Assembly (NCBI GenBank): GCA_002269645.1
Contig: NIVC01000551.1
Location: forward strand, 310,001 to 374,000
DNA: 64,000 bases
Source of the DNA: Macrostomum lignano
Taxonomy: Eukaryota
Direction: 5' to 3'
In this document: positions 15,591-55,281 of the stretch, piece by piece
Layout: each line of letters starts with the position of its first letter
How positions within the stretch are numbered: position 1 is the first letter of the stretch
Made by a program: the position numbers and the translations under genes
The notes under the pieces: generated by a model
Databases searched by the model: none
Seen by the model: only the letters and a program-made list of their open reading frames with translations
What the model was told of the DNA's origin: nothing

Positions 15591-15725
15591 CTGTGAAAAG
15601 TCTAGACTTCCATGAAAAGACCGTCTAGGGACTGAAAGGGACAAAAAAGAGCTACTTGAAAGATTAATATAAATATTAATGATGTAATAATTTTTAGATA
15701 ACAAAACAACTTGTAAGTAAAACGA

Positions 15726-17240
15726 TGGCGCAGAGCCATCGTGCCGACTTGGGGCCTCTCACCTAGAACGGTCCGTTGGATTTACACCGGCATCATCCGG
15801 CCCAGTATCACATATGCGAGTCTCATCTGGACTAGCGTGTTGGAGCACAAGACCGCCCGTCAGCGCCTGTACCAGCTTCAGGGCAGCATTTGCCGTGCCA
15901 TCACAGGTGCGTACCCGTCTACCCCCTACGAGGGGCTGAACACTATCCTTAACCTGCCTCCGCTTCACCTATTCATTAGGGCGGAGGCTATGAAGTCTGC
16001 CTCCCGGCTTATCAGAGATAAAACGCTAAATAACGCACCCTCTGGCTTTATGCCAATGAAAACATTAATCCCGCATATGGACTTTGTCCGCCGCGACCTT
16101 AACAACATCCACATGGACCTGGGCAATGTGGATAGTCGACCTCCCGCCCTCAACATCAGGAGGGGCTTCAAGACCGCCATCCCTGGCCGAGACAATATTC
16201 CGCTGGATGTCGGTGTGAACCGGCGCAGCCAGGGCATTCACTGCTTCACCGACGGCTCGCTGTTCAACGGCCGCGCTGGAGCGGGTATTGCCATTTTCCA
16301 CGAGGGTAAGATGCTTTTCCAGGAAAGTCTGAACCTCGGTGAGAACACCTCAGTTTTCCAAGCTGAAATTTGCGCCATTGAGCAGTGTGCCCAGCAACTG
16401 CTTCAGGCGAACATTAATAACTTTGACATTAATTTCTACACTGATAGCCAAGCTGCTATTAAGGCCTTAACCACTGAGAATATCTCCGCTACTACAGTAT
16501 CTCAATGCCACCGCAGTGTGCAATCTCTCTCAGTCCTTAACAGGATTAGAATTATCTGGACACCTGGTCACAGCAACATCCTGGGCAACGAGCTTGCGGA
16601 CTCTCTCGCCAAGGAGGGCAGCAACCCAGACGGCAACCATCGTCTGATGAGGCTACCCACTCCCAGGTTGCAAGTCACCCGCCATATCAACAGGTGGCTC
16701 CATCAGCAGCACCAGCTCCACTGGAACAGCTGCACCGAGTACAGGCAGAGCCGCTCTGCCATGCCTAACCTGAACAGGAAAGTCTCTGATTATCTGATTT
16801 CGCTTAACAGAACCGACCTCAGGGAGATGTGCATGGTCCTAACCGGCCACGGATTCTTCCAGAGACATATATCGTTGCAAACCGGTTGCCCTCCCACCTG
16901 TCCTTTCTGTGGCATAGGAGAGGAGACCGCGGAGCATCACGTCACCCTCTGCCCTTACTTCAACAAGGCGCGGCACAAATACCTCGGCCACCCCCAGCGG
17001 ATGGACGAGCTGACCACCCCGGACAATATCCGTGACCTGCGCGCCTTCGTCCGGGACTCCGGCCGGATGAGGGTCGCCGATGCCTCCACTGCGAACCTGC
17101 CGACTACTGGCGGGGACTGGGCGCACCCCCAGGGTTAATCCTTGTGCTCTTTTACCTTGGGGTTGCGATAGGGGCCTCGCGGCCTATTCGCGGCGCCTGC
17201 GCCCCCCGTCAGTAGTAAGTAGTAAGTAAGTAAGTAAGTA
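15726..17240 (+). mobile_element. 5'-truncated non-LTR retrotransposon (LOA/R1-like): RT thumb, RNase H, C-terminal Cys/His motif, (TAAG)n tail
   Basis: ORF 15741-17138: [15 protein letters not shown]...TP, RNase H FTDGS...[10 protein letters not shown]...TDSQAAI...[19 protein letters not shown]; tail agtaagtaagtaag 17211-17240; probable TSD aaacga (15720-15725, 17240-17245). Confidence 0.92.
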
Positions 17241-34049: not shown

Positions 34050-34253
34050 CCCCCCTTATATGCAAGTCCAGCCATGGCAAAGGGGGGCGGCTGCCACTGC
34101 ATCCACCACTAAGTAAAAATAATAAACTGGCTAACATATACCTAATAAGTTATAAGATGAATAAAATCTGAGAGTACACACAATACCGAATACAATTAGC
34201 AAATAACTATAAACTATTATTTAGATTTACCAAAGCTATCTCTTAATTGTCAG

Positions 34254-35118
34254 TGTAGTGCATGCGCCCTTGTCAGTTGGCAGGGCGCGTTGCACTTTGG
34301 GGCTGGTTGGGGGGGTTGGCGGGCGTGGCAGGGTTTGGCCGCCGGCCGGGCTTTGCGCGTGCCCCTCCCCAGCCGTGCCCCTGCCCCGTGCTCAGGGCTG
34401 GTTGGCTGCGGCCGGGCCAGCTTTGGCGCGGGTGCAGCCCCTCCCCCCTTAGGCGGGGTTTTGATTGGCTGGGCCGGCGTGGTTTGTTTTGGTGAGCTTA
34501 GCCGGTGGGGCCGTCTGCCCCAGGGTTTGGGTGCTATTTATGGTGCGACTCTGGCTCTTGCCCGCCACCTGCGTGCTTTTTGTGTTTTGGTGTGCTCCGA
34601 GAGTGCAAGCGCGAGACCTGATAAAAGAAACAGCAACATTAGCTACTTCGATAAAAGAAAGACAATAGCCTAATTGAGAAGAGTCTTGGAGAATTAAGAA
34701 GAAGTCGGAAACTGCGCTTGAGACCTGTGAATAATAAACGGTGAACAGTCATCTGGCCACTGGTAAGCCGCCTGCTGTTTGAGTCCTTTCTTTTCGGGAA
34801 GCTTGCTAGGCCGAATTCTTGCCAGAGCGTCATAACGCCGGGAGACCATATAGCTTCTGTAGTACGGTACCGTTTACCATATATTGCGTACGCCCTACGG
34901 TATAGAGAATAGAAGCACTCGAGAGTGTCACCACACCTCGAGCCGCAGCGTGAACTCTGAGTGTCACAACACCAGAGGGATCAAATTATTATCGCAGAGC
35001 GTCGCCACGCCTGCTCGTCGTATTCATAAAAGTACAGACAGAGCGTCACAACGCCTGTTATATCACATATAATATATATTGTACTCGGGACTGGGCACCC
35101 AAGCCGACCCGGGTTACA
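34254..35118 (+). repeat. Element A 5' LTR
   Basis: tgtagtgcatgc...gggttaca; ORF-track translations identical to those of the 3' copy. Confidence 0.95.
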
Positions 35119-35124
35119 ACAAAT

Positions 35125-36287: not shown

Positions 36288-36417
36288 GCCCCTGCAATTC
36301 GTCAGCCTCCGAACAAGCCGTCATCTCATCTCATCATCATCAAACGCCCGGTACCGCATCTCATCAGCATCCAGTGTCCGGTACTGCGGCTCATCAGCAT
36401 CCAGTGTCCGGTACTGC

Positions 36418-37453
36418 TGATGTGTTCCTTATTACCCGACTTCGGTAATCAAAGAACAATCACTTCTAGCTCTTTAGCTAGGCAACCCAGTAATTCAAAC
36501 GAAAGTATTCAATTACCTTGACTTCTTATGAGATATCTCTCCTTTTAGTCCTTCGTAGATCTCGTGTAGATCTCGATCTGTAGTTCAGGCCTGAATTCGA
36601 CTCGACTTGTAGTCCTGGTCCGAGTTTCTCTTTCTTCTTTTGCCGGCCGGTATCTGTCGTTCGGACCAATAAGAAGCTTCCAAATTAACAATGGGTACCC
36701 TGCGCCAAACTGCGGTTTAATATAAGCCTACTCCTTCTAGCAGTGCCTCTATGCACTCTAGGTATAGCTCCGGAAACCACTGATAGTCTTCTAAGATCTA
36801 TCAGGGGCAGTCCTTCTGGAGACTGCAACCAGTAGAGTCTAAACAGACTCAGGAGTCTCAACAGACTCAAACTAAACTCCAACGAGACGTCTCAAAACAC
36901 AGGCGCAAATGAGTAAGGCTTACCGCAAGAACTCGACGAGTCTTCAGTAGGAAGTCCTGTAGTGGCTTCCTCTTCGGAGCTCTTCTCCTTCCGGAGGAAT
37001 TGTGGCTCCGGGTCCGTTCCGGACCACTTGTATTTATAGGCGTTCAGACCTCTCTCGAGGTCGTACATCACTGTCTTCGCAAATGTCAAAGGGTCACGAT
37101 TCGGTGGCTGTCAAGCATGACAGGGTAGAAAGTTGCGCAACTAGTCTACTGTAAAAGCGCATGATTGGTTACCGTAGCTGGTAGACTTTGATTGGTTCAT
37201 CCGGGTGCAACCCGAGTGCAAACAAAATGATGACTTGAAGGTGGGGTTTGAATTGACAGTTGTTGGTCGCACGTGATTGGGTGATTTCTAAAATTAGCAT
37301 GCTCGAGGTCTCTCTCTTCCTATTGGTTAGTCCGAATATACTTATAGTTCAAAGCATACCTTTATTCATGCTCTTCAATTTACTACTAAATAAAATGTGT
37401 GAGTAGTACATTAACACTTTTATGTCTTCTTACGGGAGGTAGAACACTCTACA
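36418..37453 (-). repeat. Element B 3' LTR
   Basis: Direct repeat of 46012-47047; TATAAATA on the minus strand at 37031-37038. Confidence 0.95.
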
Positions 37454-37674
37454 AAATCTCCCATGTTTACAAAAAACTCGTCCCGAGTTTTAAATTATAG
37501 AGGATTGAAACGCATAAAAAGTGCAAGCATGTCTTTATAATAATCATTTGTCACAAGTGTTACAGGTATTTAGTAATGGGTAGTTAAGAGCGTTGGTTAT
37601 AAAAGTTATTTAAAGGTAAGTATACGCATGCAAATAAAATGTTTTTGGTTACAGTATTGACATGTGCGCCAAGA

Positions 37675-37887
37675 CTAACAATAGGCGCACTGCCGCAAAC
37701 TACTTCTACCTATCGGGCAATTCTGCCAGAGCTGAATATAATGTGAGTCGCTTAAATATTGTCCGCATATGCGATGTCTGTTTTCACAAATAATTGGTGG
37801 CTTGACAGCCAAGTCATCAGTTAAACATATTGGGCATTCGTAGAGTTGCTGTAGTTGGGGCGCCTGTTTGGACAGTGCGTTGCCCAT
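37675..37887 (-). CDS. Small accessory ORF of element B: N-myristoylation motif plus variant RING finger (70 aa)
   Basis: MGNALS (MGxxxS), strong Kozak context acaATGG; CPIC-x12-CxNxHxxCxxY...CPIGR...CAYC. Confidence 0.6.
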   Translation of the reverse strand: MGNALSKQAPQLQQLYECPICLTDDLAVKPPIICENRHRICGQYLSDSHYIQLWQNCPIGRSSLRQCAYC

Positions 37888-37998
37888 TGTCGTCGTCGCT
37901 TGAAGTTTGAAGTCGCTCAGATTAGTCGCCTCTTACGACAAGCTTGCGAAGCTGTAGAGCTATTCTGACCCGGTCTCTACACGGGTTGTTTTCGCAAC

Positions 37999-40900
37999 TT
38001 AACGAGGTCGCAGATTGTAGCCGTGTTGCTGTTTCTCGGTTGATGTTTGTGTCTCCTCGTGTTTTGTTGCGATGTGGCGGTTCGCCGAACGCGTGCGATC
38101 AGCGTTGTCTAGTGACGGTAAAAACGTTGTCGTGTCAGTGTTGATCTTCTTTAGTCGATGAATGTGCACGTAGAATTGGTGCTGATGAGGATCTTGCACA
38201 TTGGCCAGGCGTGCCGTTGTCGGTGACGTTAGTTGGACCACTCGATATGGTCCTTTGTACTTCTGTGCGTGTTTGTGCGTCTGTTGCGGCGGATAGTGCA
38301 GGTAGACGATGTCGCCGGCTGTCAGAGTTGTCGATCTCGTGTCGGTGCCGGTGGTTAGAGCCACCTGATTGTCGATGTTGTGCTTGGCTACTTTCCATGC
38401 GAGGTGTAGTTGCGTGACGAACTTTTGAATGGACGTCGGGACTTCCACATATTGCGATGGTAGTAGTTGCTGCGCCAATAGGTTTGGCGGCTGGAAGTCT
38501 CGCCCAAACATTAGAAAGAATGGCGTATTGTCCGTTGATCGATGAATAGCGCTGTTGTAGGCCATTGTTACTGCTTGCAGATAGATGATCCAGTCGTCCG
38601 GTTGTTGATGCGCGAAGTGTGTAATCATCTCGTGTAGGTTGCGGTGAAACCTTTCAACCATGTTCGCCTTCGGATTGTAGGTCGATGTGTAGATCTGCGT
38701 GATGTTGAGGATCTTCACCACTTGCTGAAAGAGTTGAGACGTAAACTGCGATCCATTGTCCGATGTGAGGTTCTTTGGCGTACCGTACTTGCAGATGATG
38801 TCGTTGAAGAAACCCATTGCCACTGTCTGAGCTGTGATGTCCGGTATTGGTATGGCAATAGCAAACTTTGAGAAAATGTCCAAGGCTGTTAGGATGTAGG
38901 TGTAGGCTATGCCATGGAGACAGCTCGGTGGCAGCGGTCCGGTGATGTCGATGCTGAGACAGTCCATAGTTGTTGACTTTGGTATCGATTGTAGCTGTGG
39001 TTTTTGTCGTCGTCCTGTCTTCGATGCTGCGCATGAGTGGCAGTTGTTGCAATACTGCTTGATGTCGCCATGCATGCTTGGCCAAAAGTAGTATTGCTCC
39101 ACTCTTGCAATGGTTTTGGCTGCCGACAGGTGTCCAGCGAGTGGGTTGTCGTGCAGCTCGTTGAGAATTGCCTGCCTAAACGAATATGGCATGTAGATTT
39201 TAGGTTTGTTGTCACTCATCCAGTAGAGTCGTGACTTGTTGATTGTTAAATGTTGTCGCTGCTTGCGCAGGAATTTTCGTTCCACGGGGCTGAGCTTGAC
39301 GTCCTTGTCGTTGTTTTTAACTGCTATGTAGAAGTTGTCGTGTTCAGTCTCATCCACCAATTCCTTGATGTTAGGGATTGGATGAATGGCGTTGACTTCG
39401 TAGGCTCTTGACAGGGCGTCCGCGGCCTTGTTAGTAATTCCTGGTTTGTAGACGAGCTTGTAGTTGTAGTCCTGGATCTTGAGTGTCATCCTGATGAGTC
39501 GGTTGTTTGTTTGTCCTTTTGTAGTTACGACGTAGGTCAGCGGTGCATGATCTGTGCGTACTATCGTCTGTAATGGAGATCCATAGATGTAGTAGTGAAA
39601 CTGTCGTAGGGCGAACAGAACTCCTAGTAGTTCTCGTTCCGTAGCTGACCATTTTGTCTCATTCGGTTTAAGTGCTCGACTGACGTAGGCTATAGGTCGT
39701 TCCTTTTTGTCTTCAGTTTCCTGTAGTAGGACTGCTCCGAGTCCCGTTCCTGAGGCGTCTGTCTCGATGATGAAGGGTTTGTCGAAGTCCGGATGCTGTA
39801 GCAGTGCGTCTGATGTCAGCTGTCGTTTGATTTCGTCAAAACTTTCTTGTTGCTTTTGTGTCCAATTCTCCTGCTTCCATTTGTCGAACTTGAGCAGGTC
39901 GTACAGCGGCTTTGCTGTCTTCGCGAAGTTGGGTAAGAACTTTCGGAAGTATTGCGCAAGTCCAAGAAATGATTGGACCTTCGTTTTGCTAGTTGGCGTA
40001 GGAAACTTTTTCACTTTATCCACGTTGTCTGGGTCCGGTGAAATTCCTTTGGCTGTCACCTGATGTCCCAGGTAACGCACGTTGTCTTGGAAGAATTTGC
40101 ATTTAGTTGGTTGTAGCTTCAGACCTTGACGTTGTATAAGCGCGAGGGCCTTCTCCGTCGCTTCATAGAGTCGTTCGAAGTCTTCTCCGTAGGCCAAGAT
40201 GTCGTCAACATAGTGCAACAGGTTCGTGCATCCTGCAAGCATGTATGCTGTTAGTCGGCTCATCGTTGCTGGGCTGTTGCTGAGTCCCATCGGCGATCGA
40301 TTGTACTCGTATACTTGTCCATTGTAGGTTTTGAAAGCCGTGTACTGTCGTGACTCTTTCTCGATTTCAATTTGCCAAAATCCATGACGTAGATCGAACA
40401 CTGTGAACAATTTTGCCGTGTTGAGCTTTGCTAGTAGTTCGGAGATCTTCGGTAGGCTTTGCTGATCCGTCGGTATGTACTTGTTCAGTAGTCTGAAGTC
40501 ACATACGAGTCGTCTTTCGTTAGTCTCCTTCTTTTGCACCAAGAGACATGGTGATGAGTATGCTGAAATGGCTTTGCTGATGATGCCGTGTTTCAGCATT
40601 TTGTCGATAATCTCATCGAAGTGCTGTTGCAGATGCTTGGCGATCGGGTACGGTTTGCACTGAATTGGTTCCGTGTGCGGCAGAAGTTTGATTTCCTGTT
40701 TGATGTCCTTGGCTCGTCCGATGTCGTAGTCATGGTGGCAGAAAGCGTCGTTGTACTTCCACAACAGCTGTCGAACTTTCCTCTTTTGCTGTTCCGTAAT
40801 CGGGCTGTCATCCAAATTGATCTTCTTTTGAAATTCTTCCTCTGTTAGTCGTGGAGTCGCTTGCTCAATCAGCATAACCGATGCTTGGGTGTTGAGATGA

Positions 40901-41508
40901 CCGATGCACATTCCTTGTCGTAGATGAACCGTTTCTGTGTTCGGGTTGAATATTTGTACTGGCAGCTGTTTATCTTTTGCAACCAGTACTAGTGCCGTAG
41001 GCATCATAATTTGGTGTTTAGCCGTGACTCTTCTGTTTGGGTCGAATATCATTGCTTCCTCCGTTGCGTTAGTTGCCTTTGCCTTTATCCAGCAGGCGCT
41101 CTCCGGTTGGATGATGACATCTTGTTGCAATGTTACTTTTGGTAGTACTCGGATCTGGTTGATCAATGGTTGTTCTACCGAGTCGATCTTAAACGTTTGC
41201 TTATTGAAGTCGAAGGTCAATGGTAGTCGAAGCTGCTTGAACGTGTCGATGCCAACAATAACGTCCTGGTTTGGGAGTCTGTCGATGACGTACGTTGGAA
41301 CTGTCAAGTGTTTATTAGCGATTCTTAAATCAATGTCGGCTTTTCCCAGAATGTTTAGCGAATGTCCTCCTGCTCCTGCAACTGCGATTGTTGCTGGCCG
41401 TAGAGCAAGTCGTAGCTTGTTGCACAGTTGTTTTGATATAACTGTGATGGAGCTGCCGGAGTCGAGTAGCGCTCGACATGGTAGATTGTTGATTACCACT
41501 TGAGCCAT
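37999..41508 (-). CDS. pol: Element B Pol (PR-RT-RNase H-IN), intact 1169 aa with its own ATG
   Basis: LLDSGS; YVDD; IETDASGTG; H-x6-H...CHSC; IDITGP / SDNGSQF / VERFH; KGPYRV. Confidence 0.96.
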   Translation of the reverse strand: MAQVVINNLPCRALLDSGSSITVISKQLCNKLRLALRPATIAVAGAGGHSLNILGKADIDLRIANKHLTVPTYVIDRLPNQDVIVGIDTFKQLRLPLTFDFNKQTFKIDSVEQPLINQIRVLPKVTLQQDVIIQPESACWIKAKATNATEEAMIFDPNRRVTAKHQIMMPTALVLVAKDKQLPVQIFNPNTETVHLRQGMCIGHLNTQASVMLIEQATPRLTEEEFQKKINLDDSPITEQQKRKVRQLLWKYNDAFCHHDYDIGRAKDIKQEIKLLPHTEPIQCKPYPIAKHLQQHFDEIIDKMLKHGIISKAISAYSSPCLLVQKKETNERRLVCDFRLLNKYIPTDQQSLPKISELLAKLNTAKLFTVFDLRHGFWQIEIEKESRQYTAFKTYNGQVYEYNRSPMGLSNSPATMSRLTAYMLAGCTNLLHYVDDILAYGEDFERLYEATEKALALIQRQGLKLQPTKCKFFQDNVRYLGHQVTAKGISPDPDNVDKVKKFPTPTSKTKVQSFLGLAQYFRKFLPNFAKTAKPLYDLLKFDKWKQENWTQKQQESFDEIKRQLTSDALLQHPDFDKPFIIETDASGTGLGAVLLQETEDKKERPIAYVSRALKPNETKWSATERELLGVLFALRQFHYYIYGSPLQTIVRTDHAPLTYVVTTKGQTNNRLIRMTLKIQDYNYKLVYKPGITNKAADALSRAYEVNAIHPIPNIKELVDETEHDNFYIAVKNNDKDVKLSPVERKFLRKQRQHLTINKSRLYWMSDNKPKIYMPYSFRQAILNELHDNPLAGHLSAAKTIARVEQYYFWPSMHGDIKQYCNNCHSCAASKTGRRQKPQLQSIPKSTTMDCLSIDITGPLPPSCLHGIAYTYILTALDIFSKFAIAIPIPDITAQTVAMGFFNDIICKYGTPKNLTSDNGSQFTSQLFQQVVKILNITQIYTSTYNPKANMVERFHRNLHEMITHFAHQQPDDWIIYLQAVTMAYNSAIHRSTDNTPFFLMFGRDFQPPNLLAQQLLPSQYVEVPTSIQKFVTQLHLAWKVAKHNIDNQVALTTGTDTRSTTLTAGDIVYLHYPPQQTHKHAQKYKGPYRVVQLTSPTTARLANVQDPHQHQFYVHIHRLKKINTDTTTFLPSLDNADRTRSANRHIATKHEETQTSTEKQQHGYNLRPR

Positions 41509-41728
41509 GGCTTTGCCAATTTCGGCGTGTAGAGTACATACGTAGTTCTCTGGCCATTTTGGGTCTTGCTGTTCTGCTTGATAGTTGGGTGGTTGTATTC
41601 TTGGTGCCGTTGGTGTTGTCGGAATCGATGGATATAGCCGCGTTGCTAGTGTCGGTTGCCCTTGAACTCACGATGTGCAGTTTCTGTTAGTTCTAAACTG
41701 TTGTCGCCTTCCGTTGTCGTTCTTTGCA

Positions 41729-43114
41729 TTATGGCATTAACTGTCTTCTTAGCTTTGGACAAGTTTGACTGAAGCACCGTACGATTGACGAAATGATGAA
41801 GATTGCCGTGACAATCCACACAATGCAAGCACCGTAGAAGATGAATCCTTGATAGAGACTGCCTCTTCCATTGAGCAGCTCCCAGAAGCTGTTTGTCCAA
41901 AATGATTTGATGGCGCTGTCCATTGAAACAAGGACGGGAAATCTTCCTGTCCCGGTTCCTTTGTCCTTTCTTGTGAACAGCTGGTGAATCATCTTGCGTT
42001 GGGTGATGAACGCTTGCAAGAAGTCGTTGATCGTCCATCCTGGTGTTATCTCGTCAAGTTGGATATCGGCGAATGGCGTATACTTCGTTCTGTTGAATCG
42101 GATTTTCAAATCCTCCATGTCGTAGTTTTCGTCGACGATTACTTCCGGTTCTGTGATGTTTGCTGTCGTTCCAGTTGTTTTGATGACGTGCAGTGCATTG
42201 TCCAGTTGATAGTAGTTTGCTGCCGTGGTGCAGGGTCTCGGTATTGCGGTGCCAACTATGATGTTGTGTACCGTGTCCAAGAATCCCTGAATTCGTTTTC
42301 CTTCGTAGAACGCTTCAATCCTTGGCTTGTCGTAGCAGGTTGTTGACGTGTTCGACGGCAAGATGTTAAAGTGCTGTATCGGCGTGCACTTGTATATCAA
42401 CAGATGCTCGTATATTGGAACTGCCAAAACGTTCGTCATTCCGGTGATTTTACGAAAAGTCATCGTAGGGTTGACATAGTAGTTTTGTCTGGCATAATTT
42501 AAGTTGATTGCGTGCATTTTGCAAGTTAGCTGGACCAGTGTTCGATGCAAGTGGTTTAACTGGTTGTGTAGATTGTGATCCAAAGCCGTTATCTTTGCTG
42601 ACAGTAGTCGGTTTGACACCAGTTTGGGACGTTCGATGTCACGTCGTCGTCTGTTCTGTTGTTCCTGCTGTTGATACGTTCCGTTGATGATCGCCAGAAA
42701 GGTTTGTTTGTCGTCATCTTTTACGTAGACTGGTATCTCTTGTTCCGAGATGAATAGTGTCTTGTCTGTATCCTTGCATTTCAGTTTTTGCTCGACTGGT
42801 TTCTTTTGAAACGTCAGTGCCAAGTCTCCTGACTTTGCCAAAAACGTGTTTGACAGTAGACCTCCTTCAACTGTGTGATACTTTTGAAGCTTGCAGTCAA
42901 TTTCCGGCTCAACTTCCCACGCGAAGAAGTATTGTCGTGACTTAGATGGTTCTTCATATCGTGAGTCGCCTCTGCGTATAATTTGCCATCGATAGTCTTG
43001 ATGATATGTTGGACTCAACGGTAAGCTGTATAGTTCCTCATTCCGCAGTATCGGCGTTGGACACCATCCTTTGCTGTATCGGCAGTCACTTAATTGCAGT
43101 TGTAGCGACTCCAT
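41729..43114 (-). CDS. env: Element B envelope glycoprotein, C-terminal part (herpesvirus gB-like class III fusogen, TM-anchored)
   Basis: Furin site NRRRRD; helical LHNQLNHLHRTLVQLTC; NPTMTFRKITG...LLIYKC; CYDKPRIEAFYEG..QGFL...PC; N-glycosylation sequons; TM FIFYGACIVWIVTAIFIISSIV. Joined to the upstream ORF by a 1-nt frameshift in an A5 run (~43114-43118). Confidence 0.75.
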   Translation of the reverse strand: MESLQLQLSDCRYSKGWCPTPILRNEELYSLPLSPTYHQDYRWQIIRRGDSRYEEPSKSRQYFFAWEVEPEIDCKLQKYHTVEGGLLSNTFLAKSGDLALTFQKKPVEQKLKCKDTDKTLFISEQEIPVYVKDDDKQTFLAIINGTYQQQEQQNRRRRDIERPKLVSNRLLSAKITALDHNLHNQLNHLHRTLVQLTCKMHAINLNYARQNYYVNPTMTFRKITGMTNVLAVPIYEHLLIYKCTPIQHFNILPSNTSTTCYDKPRIEAFYEGKRIQGFLDTVHNIIVGTAIPRPCTTAANYYQLDNALHVIKTTGTTANITEPEVIVDENYDMEDLKIRFNRTKYTPFADIQLDEITPGWTINDFLQAFITQRKMIHQLFTRKDKGTGTGRFPVLVSMDSAIKSFWTNSFWELLNGRGSLYQGFIFYGACIVWIVTAIFIISSIVRCFSQTCPKLRRQLMP

Positions 43115-45315
43115 TTTTCAAAAGGATTGTGGTAGAATGGAATATTCCTGATTAGGTAACTGTTTCGTGTCATGTAGTTAGTCCATGCTTCCGAAAAGTG
43201 TACATATCGTCCGTTTGCTGAGTTCTTCGTTCGGTAAAGTTGTGCCTCCCCCACTTTCTCATCCGGTTCTAGCTGACCATCCTTTGAGAACAGTGTTTGG
43301 TTCCATTGTAGACATTCAGCGTGCGACACATGTAGTTCGTGTTGCCAAAATCGAATTCTGTTCCACTGTCCTCGCCAAACTTTTTCTACTAGGTGCTTGT
43401 CTCTAAAGCACACTATTCCGAGTTGTCGATGCTTCTTGATGTTAGCTTTGTAGAGATCAATTGTTATCTTCTTTGGCTTCGTCTGGTTTGTCTTGAAGTA
43501 GCTGCATTTGATGTCGGTTGGTATCTTGTAGATCATCGGTTGGATATGCGCATCCGTTGGACATATCATTGGTTTCTCCATTGCTGTTGCTTTGGTGACT
43601 ACTGCCGTCAGTAGTATTATGATGATCCAGAATATCCAGAATCGCCATTTTCTGAACGTTGCCGTTGTCTTTGCTGGCATTGGCTGCGGCTGCCATTCGT
43701 TATCTTCTGCGTCCGCATCGTATTCTTCCTCTTGTTCCATTGGCGTTTCCGAGCGCAAGGCATCCGATTCGTTCCGCTGCTTGTCGTCTTCATCATTTTC
43801 TTCCTTGCTTTCTTCCGATGTTGTAGTTGTGTCACTCCATTGTCTGCGGTACCTCACTTCGGCCTTGTAGTCGACCGTTTGAATGTAGGCTTCACCATTT
43901 CGTTTATATCGGATCTCGTAGCATTGATCGCTGTCGGAGCTTAGATTTCTTTCTTCCATTCCTTTGTGCCTTCCGTCTTCATGTTCTTTGTCGGCGGCTC
44001 GGTTGTCATCAGCGTCATTCTGCATCTCATAATCGTGATCGCTGCTTTCTTCTTGCTGTTCTTCTTCCATTTCTGCATTTCCGTCGTTGCTTCTTTCGTT
44101 GTCATCCTTCGTTGCCAGTTCCTTGTCGTTGCCTTTGTTTGTTTCTTCTTTTCTTTCACTGATGTCGCTTGACAATGTTTTTTCTGTGCTCACTTCTGTC
44201 TTTTCTTCTTCGCTGTCAATGTTAGTTTCTTTCATTTCGACCATGCTGATGTTTTTTGTCTTTTCGCTGCTCTCCACATCGAGCCAGTCGATTTCATTGA
44301 TAGTGAAGTCCATTTCCAAGTCGTCTATCGTGAAGACTTGCTGCTCTTGCTGTTCGCTTTCCGGTGTGTACGTGATGGCGTTTGCATATCGTTGCATCGC
44401 TTGCGTTGGTTGCTTGGGCATGTATCTGGTGTTTCGCGGTCTGTAGCCATTGTTTCCGAAGCGTTTCGTGTTTTGCTGCTGCCAATTTTGATGTTGTTGC
44501 CATGGTTTTTGCGGCTTCCTTCTGTTGAATGGCTGTCGCTGCATGTCATTTCTTGTTGACCGATGAGGACAATGTATTTGGTAGTGTCCTTCTCGTCCAC
44601 AGTAATAGCATCTGGCTTGGGCTCGTTCATTTCGTCTTTTTTGTTCGGCGATAACGGCTGTTTGATGTTGCATCAATTTGTTTAGTTGCTGTGTCAGTTT
44701 CTGCACTTCTGTGTTGCCGGTTGTCATTAGTGGAGCGCTTGCTTCCCACTGCATTCCGCACCGTAAAAGGTCTTCCTCGGTTTCAATGTTTTCGCGTAGA
44801 AGTCTATCTCGGAGTGACGGCTGTGCATTGTTTATTACGTGCAGAATCAGATTTTGTTCGCGATCCATCAATCGCTGTCGCTCTCTAGCGGCTAATTCTG
44901 CCGCACCCAGAGGTGGTTGGTCTGCAGCTGGCAGTGTTGGCTGATGCAGTGCCTTAATTATCTGACGGATGTCGTCCACAAAGGTCAGGAAGGATTCGGT
45001 TGGCTGCATCCTTCTGTTATGCAACTTGTGCAGTAGCACTGATCTGTTTGTGCCACAGCGGTTGAAATGCGCGCGCAGTTGAATGATTAATGCTGGGTAG
45101 TTTTGCTGTGTTGCCGCATCTAGTTTACCATAAATCTCTCGTGCAGTGCCTTGGAGGAGTGGTGGCAACAGTTGCGCTTTTTCTGGATTTTGTAGGTTGT
45201 ATTCCCTACATACCAGGTCAAAATGATCAACAAAGGTGTTAAAGTCTTTTTCCATAGAAAAGGTGCCAACTGTCTCTTTGATATCTCTGTGCACCGTTGG
45301 ATTGCGCCGCGCCAT
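43090..45315 (-). CDS. gag: Element B Gag fused in frame to an acidic linker, internal signal sequence and Env N-terminus
   Basis: Capsid-like FVDHFDLVC..., CCHC CYYCGREGHYQIHC, ~250-aa D/E-rich linker, FWIFWIIIILLTAVVTKATA, then a Cys-containing ectodomain. Confidence 0.85.
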   Translation of the reverse strand: MARRNPTVHRDIKETVGTFSMEKDFNTFVDHFDLVCREYNLQNPEKAQLLPPLLQGTAREIYGKLDAATQQNYPALIIQLRAHFNRCGTNRSVLLHKLHNRRMQPTESFLTFVDDIRQIIKALHQPTLPAADQPPLGAAELAARERQRLMDREQNLILHVINNAQPSLRDRLLRENIETEEDLLRCGMQWEASAPLMTTGNTEVQKLTQQLNKLMQHQTAVIAEQKRRNERAQARCYYCGREGHYQIHCPHRSTRNDMQRQPFNRRKPQKPWQQHQNWQQQNTKRFGNNGYRPRNTRYMPKQPTQAMQRYANAITYTPESEQQEQQVFTIDDLEMDFTINEIDWLDVESSEKTKNISMVEMKETNIDSEEEKTEVSTEKTLSSDISERKEETNKGNDKELATKDDNERSNDGNAEMEEEQQEESSDHDYEMQNDADDNRAADKEHEDGRHKGMEERNLSSDSDQCYEIRYKRNGEAYIQTVDYKAEVRYRRQWSDTTTTSEESKEENDEDDKQRNESDALRSETPMEQEEEYDADAEDNEWQPQPMPAKTTATFRKWRFWIFWIIIILLTAVVTKATAMEKPMICPTDAHIQPMIYKIPTDIKCSYFKTNQTKPKKITIDLYKANIKKHRQLGIVCFRDKHLVEKVWRGQWNRIRFWQHELHVSHAECLQWNQTLFSKDGQLEPDEKVGEAQLYRTKNSANGRYVHFSEAWTNYMTRNSYLIRNIPFYHNPFEKWSRYNCN

Positions 45316-45989
45316 GTTGTTGATGGGATAGAACGGTAGCTCTAGGTCTGGGTCGATTTGTAATGGATCTTCCAGTGTGGTGTTTCTTTCGAAATAAACT
45401 TCGGTTGTAACTGATTGTCTTGCGGTGCTTTTGACACCTCAATTTGTTATGTCTGACCTTGAGCGGAATTCGGCTTTTGGCTGCTTTTTCTGACCTCTTA
45501 TTCGCTGGCTGATTTTCGCACTTATGCGGCGTCCCGCAAAGTGTATCTTTAAAGTGCTTGAAGTGCAGCTGCTTCTTGCTTTTTTCAAAGGCCTTTCTTG
45601 TCTTCGTGACGTGCCTTGTCACGTTTTATCAAATTTCGGTTTGTTTTAGCTTTCGTCAAGTGTTTTTAATTTCGGTTTTGTTTTAGTGTGTATTGATTAT
45701 TTTTCGGTTTGTTTTCAGTGTACCGGACGTTGTTTTCGGTTTTGTTTAAGGTTTACTCTTGCTCGAGCTCGTTAAAAACAAAAATTTAACACGCGTGCTC
45801 AAACGTTACTCAAAATTGACAGGTACTCAAGCCTGTATATCTAAACTTTTACTCGAGTTTCAAATCGTACAAAAATCGAAAAGTGTCGAAAAGTGTTACC
45901 TCTAACACGTGCGCGCAAAATTAATGAAGTCGCTCTTTCGTCACTTTACAATAGCTTGGCCAGGCTATTGCTCAAAAGTTTGAGTAGTG

Positions 45990-46009
45990 CCGAGAGGGCG
46001 AGATCACCA
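45990..46009 (-). promoter_or_regulatory. Putative PBS of element B (tRNA species unassigned)
   Basis: TGGTGATCTCGCCCTCTCGG begins 2 nt after the 5' LTR, consistent with a tRNA 3' end ...CGAGAUC-A-CCA. Confidence 0.6.
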
Positions 46010-46011
46010 AT

Positions 46012-47047
46012 TGATGTGTTCCTTATTACCCGACTTCGGTAATCAAAGAACAATCACTTCTAGCTCTTTAGCTAGGCAACCCAGTAATTCAAACGAAAGT
46101 ATTCAATTACCTTGACTTCTTATGAGATATCTCTCCTTTTAGTCCTTCGTAGATCTCGTGTAGATCTCGATCTGTAGTTCAGGCCTGAATTCGACTCGAC
46201 TTGTAGTCCTGGTCCGAGTTTCTCTTTCTTCTTTTGCCGGCCGGTATCTGTCGTTCGGACCAATAAGAAGCTTCCAAATTAACAATGGGTACCCTGCGCC
46301 AAACTGCGGTTTAATATAAGCCTACTCCTTCTAGCAGTGCCTCTATGCACTCTAGGTATAGCTCCGGAAACCACTGATAGTCTTCTAAGATCTATCAGGG
46401 GCAGTCCTTCTGGAGACTGCAACCAGTAGAGTCTAAACAGACTCAGGAGTCTCAACAGACTCAAACTAAACTCCAACGAGACGTCTCAAAACACAGGCGC
46501 AAATGAGTAAGGCTTACCGCAAGAACTCGACGAGTCTTCAGTAGGAAGTCCTGTAGTGGCTTCCTCTTCGGAGCTCTTCTCCTTCCGGAGGAATTGTGGC
46601 TCCGGGTCCGTTCCGGACCACTTGTATTTATAGGCGTTCAGACCTCTCTCGAGGTCGTACATCACTGTCTTCGCAAATGTCAAAGGGTCACGATTCGGTG
46701 GCTGTCAAGCATGACAGGGTAGAAAGTTGCGCAACTAGTCTACTGTAAAAGCGCATGATTGGTTACCGTAGCTGGTAGACTTTGATTGGTTCATCCGGGT
46801 GCAACCCGAGTGCAAACAAAATGATGACTTGAAGGTGGGGTTTGAATTGACAGTTGTTGGTCGCACGTGATTGGGTGATTTCTAAAATTAGCATGCTCGA
46901 GGTCTCTCTCTTCCTATTGGTTAGTCCGAATATACTTATAGTTCAAAGCATACCTTTATTCATGCTCTTCAATTTACTACTAAATAAAATGTGTGAGTAG
47001 TACATTAACACTTTTATGTCTTCTTACGGGAGGTAGAACACTCTACA
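46012..47047 (-). repeat. Element B 5' LTR
   Basis: Apparently identical to 36418-37453. Confidence 0.95.
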
Positions 47048-47800
47048 CTGCGCCTCATCAGCATCCAGTGTCCGGTACAGCGTCTCATCAGCCTCCAGTG
47101 TCCGGTACTGCGTCTCATCAGCATCCAGTGTCCGGTACTGCGCCTCATCAGCATCCAGTGTCCGGTACAGCGTCTCATCAGCCTCCAGTGTCCGGTACTG
47201 CGTCTCATCAGCATCCAGTGTTCGGTACAGTACCTCATCAGCATCCAGTGTCCGGTACTGCGTCTCATCAGCATCCAGTGTCCGGTACTGCGCCTCATCA
47301 GCATCCAGTGTCCGGTACAGCGTCTCATCAGCCTCCAGTGTCCGGTACTGCGTCTCATCAGCCTCCAGTGTCCGGTACAGTATCTCATCAGCCTCCAGTG
47401 TCCGGTACTGCGTCTCATCAGCCTCCAGTGTCCGGTACAGTATCTCATCAGCATCCAGTGTCCGGTACTGCGTCTCATCAGCCTCCAGTGTCCGGTACAG
47501 TATCTCATCAGCATCCAGTGTCCGGTACTGCGTCTCATCAGCCTCCAGTGTCCGGTACAGTATCTCATCAGCATCCAGTGTCCGGTACAGCGTCTCATCA
47601 GCATCCAGTGTCCGGTACTGCGTCTCATCAGCATCCAGTGTCCGGTACTGCGCCTCATCAGCATCCAGTGTCCGGTACAGCGTCTCATCAGCCTCTAGTG
47701 TCCGGTACTGCGTCTCATCAGCCTCCAGTGTCCGGTACTGCGTCTCATCAGCATCCAGTGTCCGGTACAGTGCCTCATCAGCCCCCAGCGTCCGGTACTG
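47048..47800 (+). repeat. 30-bp coding tandem repeat in the element A gag-pol junction (continues 36345-36417)
   Basis: cctcatcagcatccagtgtccggtactgcg units encoding (S/P)HQ(H/P)PVSGT(A/V). Confidence 0.95.
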
Positions 47801-50800
47801 CACCTCACCATCAACTAGCCGGTTTTGCACAGTCGCAGCGCCCAATCACCGTCAACGCACCTCAGTCAATTCAAATCAATCCTGCGTCGATATATGTTAC
47901 GGCCTCAATCGCAGGGCGGAGGGTGAACGCGCTAGTGGACTCGGGAGCTTCCTGCACCATTATCTCACGGGAAGCTTACCAAAGTATGCCGAAACAGAGC
48001 GTCAGAGATTTGGCCGGTGCTGAAGGCTACGTTAGCTTAGCAAACGGCAGCCCGATCGAAATCGAGAGGACAGTCCTGTTGCGACTGTCAATCGCTGATA
48101 AAGTAATAGATACTCCAGCCTTGGTAGTCAGCGGAGTGAAGTACCAACTGGTATTGGGATCCGACTTCTGCAGGGACAACAGTTGCGTCATCGACTACAA
48201 GACAGCTGTCTTTTCAGTGCAGGACACTGCAATCCCGTTCCGATGGCAAGCTGAGCGCCCGATCGTTTGCAGAATTTTGGCGACAAGGTCCAGCACAATA
48301 CCGCCAGGTCATCAAGCAGTTCTGTCAGCAAGGCTGGAGAGCAAAGGACGACGGAACAGAGGGTGTGTCGGTCTAACTGAGAATCTCGGAGCGAACGATT
48401 TGGCAGCTGGCCGCTGGCTTGCTAAGGCCTTAGTGATCCCAAATAGCGGCAGCCGTCTGCCGACTCGACTCATCAATATCACGGAAGAGCCAGTCAGAAT
48501 TCGCCAAGGTTGTACGCTCGGGTGGTTCTGCCCCCTAGAATCCACCGAACCGTTGAACACCATCAAGCTCTTAGCCGTAGAGTCAGGAGACGATCCACAG
48601 GAAGAGCCGAAGGTCCAAGGCAGCAACAGCCCTTCGGAAGCAGACTTGCTACCAAACTCGTATGGCGACTGTGGACTGTCGACGAAAGAAGACGAATAAT
48701 TTAGAATCCTTGTCCGGAGTTACAGCGATGTGTTCACGACCAAGCAGACTTCAAGCAAGTTAACTACCGTGGTGGAGCATGAAATTAACACCGAGAATGC
48801 GCGCCCAATCAAAATCCCACCGCGTCGTCTGCCTCCCCACTTACAGCCAGAATTAGATCGTCAAGTCAACGAGTTGCTGGAAAAGGGGCAGATCGAAGAA
48901 GCACAGTCGCCATGGTGCTTTCCTTTGGTGTGCGTAAAGAAGAAATCAGGGGAAATGAGGATGTGCGTCGATTATCGGAAGTTGAATGAGGTCACCGTCA
49001 AGGACGCAGTGCCGATGCCGAGGGTCGATGATGCGCTGGAGGCAGTACACGGCGCCAAGATCTTCTCGACAATGGACCTTCACAGCGGGTTTTGGCAAGT
49101 AGGGGTGAGACCTCAGGATCAGGACAAGACGGCGTTTGCAGTGCCGCATCGCGGACAATTTCGATGGAAGGTTATGCCGTTCGGCTTAGTGAACAGCCCA
49201 GCAACATTCACCAGGTTGATGGCAGCCGTTCTGGACAAGCAGATGTGGAAAACCTGTCTCGTCTACATCGACGATCTACTGGTTTGGTCAACCGACGTGG
49301 ATGAACACCTGAGAAGACTGGAGGAAATATTCAGCAAGTTGCGGCAAGCAAATTTGTGCCTGAAGCCCCAGAAGTGTCACTTTTTGCAAAAGCAAGTGAA
49401 ATTTCTCGGTCACACGCTGTCGGCTGCTGGCATCAGTACCGATGAGGAGAAAGTTCAAGAAGTGAAGAACTGGCCAACACCGCGATCCTCGACGGAGCTG
49501 CATTCATTCTTGGGCCTGTGTGGCTATTACAGAAAGTTTATTAAAGATTTCGCCGCAATAGCAGCGCCTCTAACTCGATTGACAACAAAAGACGCAAAGT
49601 TTGAATGGAAAACGGAACAGCAGCTGGCGTTCGAAAAATTGAAGGAACGAATGACAAGTTCAGAGGTTATGGCTCATCCGGATTTCTCCCCGGATGCCGG
49701 AGAGTTTATCCTCGATACTGATGGCAGTTCGAAGATGGGCATAGGAGCGGTACTTTCTCAAGTCCAGCCAGATGGAGCAGAACGAGTGATCGCCTATGGG
49801 TCCAAGACACTAAATCAAGCCGAACGCAACTATTGTACGACTCGTTTAGAACTACTAGCGGTTGTGACTTTCATCATGAAGTTCAGATACTATCTGCTGG
49901 GAAAAGCGTTCTGTCTGCGAACGGACCACAGCAGCCTGCAATGGTTAAAAAACTTCAGTGACGCCGAGGGACAGGTTGCTCGCTGGTTGGAGAAGTTGGC
50001 TCCATTTCAGTACCGCATCGTTCACAGACTAGGTCGATCGCATGGCAACGCGGACGCAATGTCGAGGAAGCCAGTACGGAGACATTTCGGAGCGGAGACA
50101 TGCCCGGCATGTGCGCAGCATCCAGAAGGACTAAATGCAGTCGAATTTGAACGATTCTCAGCCGGCAATCTGGCAAGCGAGCAGGATCAAGATGACGATT
50201 TGAGAACAGTAAAGGAAGCGCTTGGCTCAAACCCAGTTCCAGATAAAAGCGAGACAGCTTGGAGTCCACTGGCTAGAGCCGTCTGGACTCGAAAAGACGA
50301 CCTGGTGCTGCAAGAGAACGTGCTCCTTGTGAGAAACAAAGACAGGCGCGATGAGTATCAAATGGTGCTGCCACGAAAGGCATTGGATCGTATCTTGAAA
50401 ACCCTACACGAGGGAGTGGGAGGTGGCCACATGGGCTTTGCGAAGACAAAATTTAAAGTGCTTCAGCGCTACTGGCGTCCAGGATTGTCTCGTGCCATTG
50501 AAGAATATATTCGCGGTTGTGCCACCTGCTGCAAGTCAAAGCCGGGCAAGCGAAACCGAGCACCCCTGCAACCGTTGACATTCGCAGCACCATTCGATTG
50601 CGTCATGATGGACATTGTCGGGCCGCTACCGCGGAGTAAGGCTGGAAACATTTATCTCCTGACAGTCCAAGATTCGTTTACGAAGTGGCCTGACGCGTAC
50701 CCGCTTCGCAACCAGAAGGCAAGGACGGTGGCAAGGGCGCTTTTCAATCGATGGATTAGCCAGCATGGATGTCCGAGTACTTTGCACAGTGACCAAGGAA

Positions 50801-52131: not shown

Positions 52132-53641
52132 ATGGATTTGTACGCTGTCCTCCAAGTCGGACACACAGCCGAACGTGCCGAGATCAGGCGAGTCTATCGA
52201 CAGCTAGCGCTCTTCTGGCACCCGGACAAGCACCCGGACAAGGAACTCGCAGGACGCCGTTTCCAAGAAATTGAGACTGCTGGTAGAATTCTATCGTGTC
52301 CATATCGCCGACCAGTTGGGCGATAAATCAATCCCGTATGACGAGGCTGTAACCTTCGCAATGACGTTCATACCTCCTACTGGTGTAAGAATGCCGGCGG
52401 ACATCGAAGAGGGAGTACAGCAAAGGCGAGAAGTTGAAGAAGCTCAGCGCAAGGAAGCTGGTCTCAGGCAGGGGAGACAGGGACAGAGGAACGATTACGA
52501 AGCGGATGGCTACATTCTAATCTCGGACGACGATGAGAGCGAGGAGTCGGATGAATGTAGCATCGACACAGAAGAAGAAGACGAGTGGCTGGCATCGGAT
52601 GGCTCCTCCGGAAGTAGTGAGTCAGAAGCTATGGAGATCGATGTACCGGAAAGCAAGGAGGTTGTCTCACATCGCGCGTCGGGAGCAATATGGGATGATG
52701 AAAAGCTGTCGTTATCGGCAGCTGCGCGTCAGCTCCGCCATCGTTTGATGAAGCATATTTTGGCTGGACAGTCGGACGGAATCGTGTCAGTGCTCACGGC
52801 TATGAGACGGCTGTTTCGAGACTCGCAGCGAGAACCGAGGAGCGCACTGTCAATGGTCCTGCTGCAGGCGTTGTTCTTCATCCGCAGAGATATCGCTCCG
52901 GTAAAGCGTCAGAGAGCAGGCCGCCGTTACTGGTCTAGGCAGAGTTTTGATTGTTTCGTCCGACAGCTCTGTCACGAGCTCATCCCGCTGTTCGGTTTGC
53001 GCCGGCCCGGCAGGCTGCTCGAGGTCCTGAAAAGCTGCGTCGGTCTCCCTGGACTTCGGGTTCGCTGGGGTGCCCAGTTCCGATTCATACTGTATTTTCT
53101 GCTTACTTGTATGTATGTTGTTACGCTCGTACTGTATGGGTTTATTTGCATGCTAGTGGGGTCAAGCTTCCTGGGGGAATGGCTCAGCAGCTGGGCGGCG
53201 GCCACGTGCGCTTCCTGCCGGCTTCTGCGGCGGCCACCTGCGCTTCCTGCCGGCTTCTGCGGCGGCCACGTGCGCTTCCTGCCGGCTTCTGCGGCGGCCA
53301 CCTGCGCTTCCTGCCGGCTTCTGCGGCGGCCACCTGCGCTTCCTGCCGGCTTCTGCGGCGGCCACGTGCGCTTCCCGCCCGGCCATCTGCGCGCCTCGCC
53401 CGGCCGCCTTCGCATCTTGCCGGCCACCTGCGTGCCCTGCCGGCCATCTGCGCGTCCTGTCGGCAACCTGCGCTTCCTGCCCGGCCATCTGCGCGTCCTG
53501 TCGGCAACCTGCGCTTCCCGCCCGGCCATCTGCGCTTCCTGCCGGCCACCTGCGTGTCCTGTCGGCAACTTGCGCGTCCCGCCCGGCCATCTGCTCGTCC
53601 TGCCGGCCGCCTGCGATGGTTTTCTGTGCCGCCAGCTTTGA
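52132..53641 (+). CDS. Element A ORF3: J-domain (DnaJ) + acidic region + hydrophobic segment; one +1 frameshift near 52310
   Basis: MDLYAVLQV...EIRRVYRQLALFWHPDKHP...FQEIETAGRILS is a J-domain with HPD (52219-52227); acceptor ttgctttgcag directly precedes the ATG; continues in ORF 52271-53641. Confidence 0.75.
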
Positions 53642-53859: not shown

Positions 53860-53871
53860 AGGAGGGGAGGG
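53860..53871 (+). promoter_or_regulatory. Polypurine tract of element A
   Basis: aggaggggaggg immediately before the 3' LTR. Confidence 0.85.
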
Positions 53872-54736
53872 TGTAGTGCATGCGCCCTTGTCAGTTGGCA
53901 GGGCGCGTTGCACTTTGGGGCTGGTTGGGGGGGTTGGCGGGCGTGGCAGGGTTTGGCCGCCGGCCGGGCTTTGCGCGTGCCCCTCCCCAGCCGTGCCCCT
54001 GCCCCGTGCTCAGGGCTGGTTGGCTGCGGCCGGGCCAGCTTTGGCGCGGGTGCAGCCCCTCCCCCCTTAGGCGGGGTTTTGATTGGCTGGGCCGGCGTGG
54101 TTTGTTTTGGTGAGCTTAGCCGGTGGGGCCGTCTGCCCCAGGGTTTGGGTGCTATTTATGGTGCGACTCTGGCTCTTGCCCGCCACCTGCGTGCTTTTTG
54201 TGTTTTGGTGTGCTCCGAGAGTGCAAGCGCGAGACCTGATAAAAGAAACAGCAACATTAGCTACTTCGATAAAAGAAAGACAATAGCCTAATTGAGAAGA
54301 GTCTTGGAGAATTAAGAAGAAGTCGGAAACTGCGCTTGAGACCTGTGAATAATAAACGGTGAACAGTCATCTGGCCACTGGTAAGCCGCCTGCTGTTTGA
54401 GTCCTTTCTTTTCGGGAAGCTTGCTAGGCCGAATTCTTGCCAGAGCGTCATAACGCCGGGAGACCATATAGCTTCTGTAGTACGGTACCGTTTACCATAT
54501 ATTGCGTACGCCCTACGGTATAGAGAATAGAAGCACTCGAGAGTGTCACCACACCTCGAGCCGCAGCGTGAACTCTGAGTGTCACAACACCAGAGGGATC
54601 AAATTATTATCGCAGAGCGTCGCCACGCCTGCTCGTCGTATTCATAAAAGTACAGACAGAGCGTCACAACGCCTGTTATATCACATATAATATATATTGT
54701 ACTCGGGACTGGGCACCCAAGCCGACCCGGGTTACA
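53872..54736 (+). repeat. Element A 3' LTR
   Basis: Direct repeat of 34254-35118. Confidence 0.95.
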
Positions 54737-55281
54737 AGTTCAAAGTTGAGGTTAAGATCAAGGAATAGGGCCTTCTTAAGCCTAATTTAAAATTGTAAGG
54801 CCAATGCAAAACGCGACACGACACTAGCAGTAGACATGTTAAATGTTAAGATAGAGCCTGACTATTACTTCTCACTCAATTTCTGTCTGCCAAATTATGT
54901 GGAACATCTCATACCCACCCTACCGTTAAACGAACGTTCCCTCAAAAGGGGGTGATACATTTACTCCATTGGCGCATAGAAAATTTTAATTTATTTAATT
55001 AAATTATGATACTCCATCGATTATTTAGTAATGATTACGGTCCTGGGCGGCTCGCCGGGCGGTAAGTATCAATTAAGGCTGACAGGATCATTGGTAGGCA
55101 CTACATGTACATGCAAGTGATTGATTTCTATAAGATATGCTCTGAGGCCCAAGCAGCCTCCAATCAAGGCCTGAAGAAGGCCGAATCCATAAATCTCAAT
55201 GGAGGTATATTTATTAGTCATTAATCAGTTCAAGAAGCTTAACACAGTTATATGCACGCTGTAAGCTGTGATTTCTATCAA

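Follow-up and report, generated by a model that had tools for sequence, protein, structure and literature searches.

Element B and the reading frame behind its pol gene

The window analysed here, a stretch of 64,000 nucleotides of Macrostomum lignano DNA, contains a minus-strand LTR retrotransposon, element B, which spans 36418-47047 and is bounded by two identical LTRs of 1036 nt, with a 4-bp target-site duplication at 36414-36417 and 47048-47051. Its 5' LTR (46012-47047) has TG...CA ends, a TATA-like box and two splice-donor-like sites at about LTR positions 530 and 937, and is followed by a 12-nt primer-binding site (45998-46009). The genes lie in the order gag, env, pol, and in the window copy the coding region is split over three frames: the first (43090-45315) encodes a Gag with a zinc knuckle, an acidic spacer, a hydrophobic segment and the N-terminal part of env, the second (41729-43117) the C-terminal part of a gB-type fusion glycoprotein (PF24664, E 1.1e-05, below the curated cut-off), and the third (37999-41667) protease, RT, RNase H and integrase in Ty3/gypsy order. 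Several relatives of B have a single frame of about 2,400-2,500 codons. The 40 nt that precede the 3' LTR (37454-37493, the LTR itself occupying 36418-37453) are conserved across families and make up the polypurine-tract region. With its PR-RT-RH-IN order, TG...CA LTRs, primer-binding site, target-site duplication and gB-type env between gag and pol, B has the sequence features of a GAG-ENV-POL errantivirus.

B is nested in another gypsy element, element A, whose LTRs lie at 34253-35119 and 53871-54737. The insertion site is a 30-nt tandem array within the coding region of A (36328-36417 and 47047-47813) that is open in frame. Ahead of its 3' LTR, A has a DnaJ-domain ORF (52132-52326, plus strand; Pfam E 6e-17) followed by a 426-codon ORF with no Pfam match, and it seems to carry an accessory gene of its own, broken in the window copy. 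Elsewhere in the window, a 473-codon plus-strand frame with an RNase H domain (15717-17138; Pfam E 1e-13) is probably a piece of another retroelement. The LTR of B is only 79-88% identical to that of most sibling copies (L084-L096) and 99% identical in one, with bodies about 99% identical, and its difference from the sister family falls mainly in the first 410 nt, a pattern that suggests swapping of U3.

Downstream of pol lies a 70-codon ATG-to-stop ORF (37887-37675, minus strand), placed 111 nt 3' of the pol stop (38001-37999) and 221 nt 5' of the 3' LTR; the plus strand of this interval holds no such frame. The ORF begins MGNALS, with A at -3 and G at +4 of its start, and reads through a CPIC...CENRHRIC pattern, with Tyr at 44 and Gly at 60, to a terminal CAYC. 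The first-pass annotation had described the main features accurately: the strong Kozak context, the Siah-like RING pattern in which Tyr and Gly replace two expected cysteines, the location after pol and before the 3' LTR, and a Gag that begins MARR and so lacks Gly2. The ORF alone matches Pfam weakly (Baculo_IE-1, E 0.035; Sina_RING, E 0.94), and a word-index protein search with its 70 residues, which is weak evidence, returned no match. Searching the animal's own genome with the ORF gave 113 candidates, 111 of which match, far beyond chance.

Comparison with sister families shows that the 70-codon ORF is the decaying stump of an accessory gene, ORF1, of 216-222 residues. DNA similarity to these families runs past the stop to 37626, with 16-17 further codons (37626-37674, minus strand) that can be aligned to a second zinc finger of the sister genes, and restarts at 37493. 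About 1,310 nt separate the points matching 37626 and 37493 in the sister copy L061. In B the interval is a 132-nt AT-rich spacer (37494-37625) that stands in place of the rest of ORF1 and of ORF2; three diverged copies elsewhere in the genome have a 3' spacer that matches it at 77% identity. The stump (37675-37887, minus strand, stop at codon 71) retains the N-terminal MGxxxS extension, a damaged RING finger 1 and the first two ligands of finger 2. The view of the frame as a complete micro-ORF fails, since homology continues beyond its stop and some 1.3 kb of the sister cassette is then absent; the extra CAYC is indeed there, but it does not offer alternative zinc ligands to the RING, because it is the first ligand pair of the second finger.

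B copies are very young, as the identical LTRs of the window copy attest, and the own genome holds 22 near-identical ones, all of which share the deletion after 37626, the stop at codon 71 and Gly60. Codon 44 encodes Tyr in 16 copies and Cys in six, further ligand losses occur at residues 44, 57 and 70, and a frameshift interrupts the ORF in two copies, the frame and start context being intact in 20 of the 22. Two of the eight zinc ligands are replaced in the window copy and one is absent from every copy, so that the stump nowhere has the eight ligands that a RING requires. Variant sites in the ORF comprise four synonymous and ten replacement changes, for which the neutral expectation is not rejected (p 0.50), and the last 99 codons of pol in the same copies, with 18 synonymous and 17 replacement sites (18/35 synonymous, p 0.0004), are constrained; these counts are small and the copies may be doubled by assembly haplotypes. 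Nothing suggests that the short 70-residue form is under selection, and the earlier aside that the ORF was "possibly decaying" proves correct for the window copy on the strength of the shared stop, the deletion and the neutral variation. Conservation in sibling copies, on which the first-pass annotation had staked its reading, does hold, but for the frame as the truncated beginning of what was once a longer gene.

Full-length cassettes of the sister families

In the sister families ORF1 has 216-222 codons, and between it and the 3' LTR come one or two paralogues, each about 200-212 codons long. Alignment and modelling show that these proteins share one architecture: RING finger 1 is followed by a second finger that resembles a RING, and the C-terminal part is a helical domain of about 110 residues. 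We aligned 20 of the longest natural full-length ORFs, hand-picked from 20 stretches, with identities to the first of 19-75%. Of the 16 zinc ligands, 12 never vary and the other four hardly do, and P58 and R61 (both invariant) and a WP motif are likewise conserved. The ligands of finger 1 follow C3HC4 spacing, Cys and His being three residues apart as they are in SIAH, and the pattern C-x2-C...C-x1-3-H-x2-C-x2-C...C-x2-C runs through the 20 sequences, with six ligands invariant and the first pair conserved in at least 90%; its sequence pattern includes the E2-contact hydrophobics, the Pro and the linchpin Arg of RING E3s. Finger 2 starts with CAYC; it has no linchpin arginine, and one of its loops falls a residue short of the usual RING pattern.

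AlphaFold2, run on the 20-sequence alignment, gives a model with pLDDT 90.5 and pTM 0.81, in which residues ~13-64 align to many RINGs at an rmsd of 2-3 Å, none reaching E 0.001 or Z 5. Profile matches of finger 1 to RING1B, TRIM5, SIAH1 and TRIM21 (E ~1e-5) align its C-x-I/V-C-L and C-P-x-C-R segments; Sina_RING matches 16 of the 20 family members, Pfam's curated cut-offs are passed by two of ten full-length proteins, most scores lying below them, and the Atlas look-alikes are viral RING clusters at 0.86-0.91, a weak likeness. An HMM search for RING/SINA, as had been proposed, gives weak matches for the 70-codon ORF alone and RING matches at modest scores for the full-length forms. Similarity to known RING E3 ligases covers only about 50 residues: finger 2 and the helical domain match nothing known, the latter having no Pfam or Atlas counterpart. 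ATP synthase delta/OSCP, the best structural hit to the helical domain (Z 4.6), was rejected as a common helical arrangement.

The full-length genes have evolved under constraint. For ORF1, dN/dS is 0.07-0.28 in 10 of 36 pairs, the other 26 being saturated, and for the later genes it is 0.14-0.21 in 9 of 11 pairs; pol has 0.04-0.06, the cassette genes lying 2-5 times higher. In a tree of 24 proteins, which has four long outside branches and a root placed for drawing only, ORF1 forms a clade apart from several clades of later genes, and the duplications must therefore be old; paralogues within one cassette are about 20% identical. Every family of the B-like clade has an ORF1 that begins MGNALS or MGNAQS, so that Gly2 and Ser6 are kept there through ~30% divergence, and Gly2 is absent from the first genes of other families and from all later genes. 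Most simply, the myristoylation motif would be a gain in the B-like clade, because the other first genes, and a more distant relative (P0003), lack the extension. Cassettes have also been swapped between families, as B is 90-100% identical to family L062 in pol but closer to L061 than to L062 in the ORF1 region (84% against 76%).

Beyond the cassettes themselves, a profile search of 1.84 billion representatives returned four full-length matches under E 1e-30, the remaining matches being generic RINGs. One is a UniRef gene model labelled Macrostomum lignano and named 'RING-type domain-containing protein', which joins LTR pieces to copies of later genes nearly identical to those of the cassette. 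P0003, P0004 and P0005 are unnamed proteins of 206-214 residues from short public contigs, 22-34% identical to the family, with both fingers and the WP motif, and P0003 clusters with ORF1 in the 24-protein tree. Word-index protein searches found nothing from alignment A1 (710 candidates) or from longer forms with A2 (2184 candidates), which is weak evidence, and scans of metagenome contigs and viral contigs found no relative. P0006 and P0020 are further relatives from outside the own genome.

Loss of the cassette is common within the B-like clade. Its 76 matched rows in the own genome, 35 more distant or partial rows being excluded, divide into 22 B stumps and 54 sisters; with frame length taken as a proxy for cassette integrity, 28 of the sisters have frames of 120-160 codons, mostly through a second, independent deletion, and 20 have at least 200 codons without a stop. 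Since most recent copies lack a whole cassette, recent amplification needs no cassette in the same copy, and the cassette genes may matter little today.

Several arrangements elsewhere in the own genome bear on how cassettes are carried. L064 (contig C301) and copies like it have lost most of env and pol but keep gag, the pol C-terminus, the RNA element described below and both of their RING genes intact, and are thus non-autonomous elements in which the cassette persists. At L069 and L112 (contig C1063; C1064 has a similar copy) a cassette of three RING genes, accompanied by a remnant of the pol C-terminus, adjoins AT-rich genes that look Polinton-like by eye (capsid-, ATPase- and DNA-polymerase-like ORFs) and have no clear Pfam match; a Polinton origin of the cassette was rejected, as the pol remnant lies between the cassette and the Polinton-like genes. 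Contigs C2121, C1130, C87, C272 and C1405 each hold 3-7 ORF1 matches of several families on one strand within some tens of kb, together with many more later-gene fragments, and C87, C1130 and C2121 look like versions of one locus; a nested insertion hotspot and a flamenco-like piRNA cluster are candidate readings. Distant gag-env-pol families (34% pol identity) have in the post-pol slot unrelated ORFs of 253-362 codons with no Pfam match (L159:6303-7100, L160:5149-6027, L161:4956-5765 and L163:4877-5974), three of the four forming one family and beginning after CAG.

A structured RNA and expression signals

Between the pol stop and the start of ORF1 lies a conserved non-coding element of 61 nt (37925-37985, minus strand), shared across families whose pol proteins are only 72% identical. 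It comprises a 4-bp hairpin whose loop is complementary to a downstream 7-mer, a pseudoknot-like arrangement, followed by one or two small hairpins. Its exact pattern occurs at 103 places, two of those listed being unrelated, and the reversed control at none. Among 11 distinct sequences, both partners have changed in two of the loop/7-mer pairs, a single family has lost one pair, and no variation is seen in the remaining helices; this covariation, drawn from about three sequence types and two events, is thin but specific, and the RNA is probably pseudoknotted. No Rfam family matches it (best E 1.3, far below gathering scores). The element has one variant site in 64 nt among the 22 B copies and is kept even in cassette-deleted copies. 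It could allow internal initiation, block a nuclease, or act as a signal for export or packaging.

The later genes have a start signal of another kind. In 19 of 26 later genes the start codon is preceded, at a distance of no more than 2 nt, by a pyrimidine-AG, which is so placed in none of 18 first genes and in 33 of 491 background ATGs, where the exceptions are mostly third genes and the counts come from related sequences, not independent events. Second genes start at splice-acceptor-like sites and are probably read from spliced RNAs; the UniRef model, which uses an LTR-donor-type join to later genes, offers a hint only. Contigs from three runs guessed to be RNA and one of unclear kind cover a sister element in full (30 of 30 bins). 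Among the 13 joints listed in them there is none that connects an LTR donor to a cassette gene, although such contigs cannot settle expression or splicing. Readthrough or reinitiation from pol into ORF1 was rejected, because the spacing varies from ~110 to 150 nt and stops intervene.

Cassette function and known systems

We consider it reasonably probable that the cassette proteins are element-encoded RING ubiquitin ligases, in which finger 1 would be catalytic, finger 2 and the helical domain would choose substrates, and the paralogues would widen the target range. The linchpin arginine sits right after the last Cys of a RING. In the portion of the literature consulted it is a catalytic hallmark of RING E3s, whose domains activate E2~ubiquitin (PMC12326332). 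On this model, finger 1 would bind a host E2~ubiquitin while the rest of the protein picks the substrate, and the ligases would remove or re-route host factors that limit the element, with paralogues covering different targets or compartments and the myristoylation signal of ORF1 in one clade placing that ligase on membranes. Second genes would be read from spliced RNAs and ORF1 through the structured RNA ahead of it. The cassette would be dispensable in cis, given that subfamilies lacking the greater part of it have gone on multiplying, possibly with full copies supplying the proteins in trans; the deleted subfamilies keep the RNA element, and the stump probably survives owing to its adjacency to that element. 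The earlier proposal of an accessory factor of an enveloped retroelement holds up in so far as a RING accessory gene is present and an E3 ligase is the best functional guess, but not as a Z-like myristoylated budding micro-protein.

Large DNA viruses deploy RING E3 ligases against host defences. More tentatively, we can imagine an errantivirus clade whose own RING ligase family, with an undescribed substrate-binding helical domain, disarms host transposon-silencing or antiviral proteins, is read through a new pseudoknotted RNA and splicing, is swapped between families and acts in trans, with cassette-less copies such as B as cheats. If true, an LTR retrotransposon would have a set of genes aimed directly at host defence, in the way that large DNA viruses have their E3 ligases.

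A different and rather unlikely account, prompted by Cer1 and the adjacent RNA and not exclusive of a ligase role, would make the proteins RNA factors of the Rev or CERV type, whose fingers or basic helical domain bind the upstream RNA to export or translate unspliced genomic RNA, in trans for deleted copies. The splice-acceptor-like starts of the later genes (ORF1 has none) speak for it, as does the adjacent structured RNA, with its near-invariance in the deleted B copies and its 103 pattern matches against none in the control; yet what is invariant in the proteins are the residues by which a RING binds an E2, a single RNA target hardly accounts for two or three paralogues that are only ~20% identical, and CERV is described, in the part of its report consulted, as lacking a homologue outside nematodes (PMC10309623).

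The idea of a myristoylated matrix or budding factor like arenavirus Z, making up for a Gag without Gly2, draws on the retention of Gly2 and Ser6 in ORF1 of the B-like clade and on weak matches of finger 2 to RING finger protein Z (E 0.1-2.4, 5 of 20 rows), and we regard it as improbable. Those matches are no better than one to TRIM32 (E 0.044) and sit in the part absent from the window, whose 70-codon ORF matches no Z entry at E 10; the Z family is also absent from the Pfam matches of both stump and full-length proteins. The first genes of other families and all later genes lack Gly2. Arenavirus Z carries late domains, and the motifs PTAP/PPxY/YPxL are absent from the stump and from 19 of the 20 aligned members, being present in one. 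Moreover, the parent protein is three times longer than the 70-residue form (216-222 residues, with two fingers and a helical domain, where Z has a single RING in ~90-100 residues), and the polyprotein's own hydrophobic segment after Gag could anchor Gag.

Function in the 70-residue form itself, such as that of a decoy bound to membranes in which CAYC or other residues substitute as ligands, is very improbable and largely refuted: the frame and start context survive in 20 of 22 copies, which are themselves very young, but the variation is neutral, ligands are lost at 44, 57 and 70, two copies are frameshifted, and a single-sequence model has a pLDDT of 53.5, weak evidence since no alignment was used. 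That the genes are neutral passengers, fragments of a host RING gene acquired by chance, we find scarcely credible even though the cassette is often lost, as strong purifying selection over saturated synonymous distances (dN/dS) refutes it for the full-length genes and no more-distant, intron-containing host gene stood out in own-genome protein searches (best 150 candidates scored, hits inspected in part).

GAG-ENV-POL errantiviruses with an HSV/gB-type env have been reported in flatworms, nematodes and bryozoans and share with B, according to the sections consulted, their gene order, gB-type env and Ty3/gypsy pol (PMC13524379). A Macrostomum lignano element listed there shares its 12-nt primer-binding site with B, and its LTR length, 864 nt, with the sister family of B, so that this family has probably been catalogued already. 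The words RING and ubiquitin occur nowhere in the main text of that report, nor do RING, ubiquitin or zf-C3HC4 in its seven supplementary files, and no description of the post-pol cassette was found in these parts of it. More broadly, the openly accessible literature covered, including PMC13524379 (text and seven supplements) and PMC12801592 (text), yielded no description of an array of RING genes in elements of this type.

Cellular and DNA-virus RING E3 ligases (SIAH1, RING1B, TRIM5/21, herpesvirus ICP0, baculovirus IE-0/PE38 and giant-virus RINGs) share the spacing, E2-contact residues and arginine of finger 1, but the likeness is confined to ~50 residues, and the cassette's finger 2 and helical domain have no known match. 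Arenavirus Z resembles one cassette clade in its MGxxxS start and, weakly, finger 2; it has ~90-99 residues and one RING, in contrast to the 200-222 residues, two fingers and helical domain of cassette proteins that mostly lack Gly2 or late domains. The Burro giant gypsy elements of planarians, like the cassette elements, come from flatworms, have their env placed in frame between gag and pol and, in the part of the report consulted, carry ubiquitin- or apoptosis-related extras (AIR1 RING-like, MATH, BIR and SUMO-like), but these lie inside a 4,900-residue polyprotein or upstream, whereas the cassette consists of separate, duplicated post-pol genes in an 11-kb element (PMC6431247). Accessory genes after pol are known from LTR elements of bdelloid rotifers (PMC5408684) and from nematode Cer1, with its CERV (PMC10309623); as far as the consulted portions of these reports go, such ORF3-slot genes encode a GDSL esterase, a DEDDy nuclease or an RNA-export protein, and none is a RING array.

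In animals, the persistence of LTR elements under host silencing is an open question, and few Ty3/gypsy accessory genes have assignable biochemistry. The substrates of likely E3 ligases would name host factors that restrict these elements, in a probably tractable flatworm model. The cassette shows what fills the post-pol slot once env has moved upstream and adds a helical domain and a structured RNA that are both new; the 70-codon ORF, in itself a pseudogene, is of interest only because it points to the cassette. By comparison with known systems, the backbone of B is of a familiar kind, and what is probably new is an LTR element with its own duplicated and selected genes for likely ubiquitin ligases.
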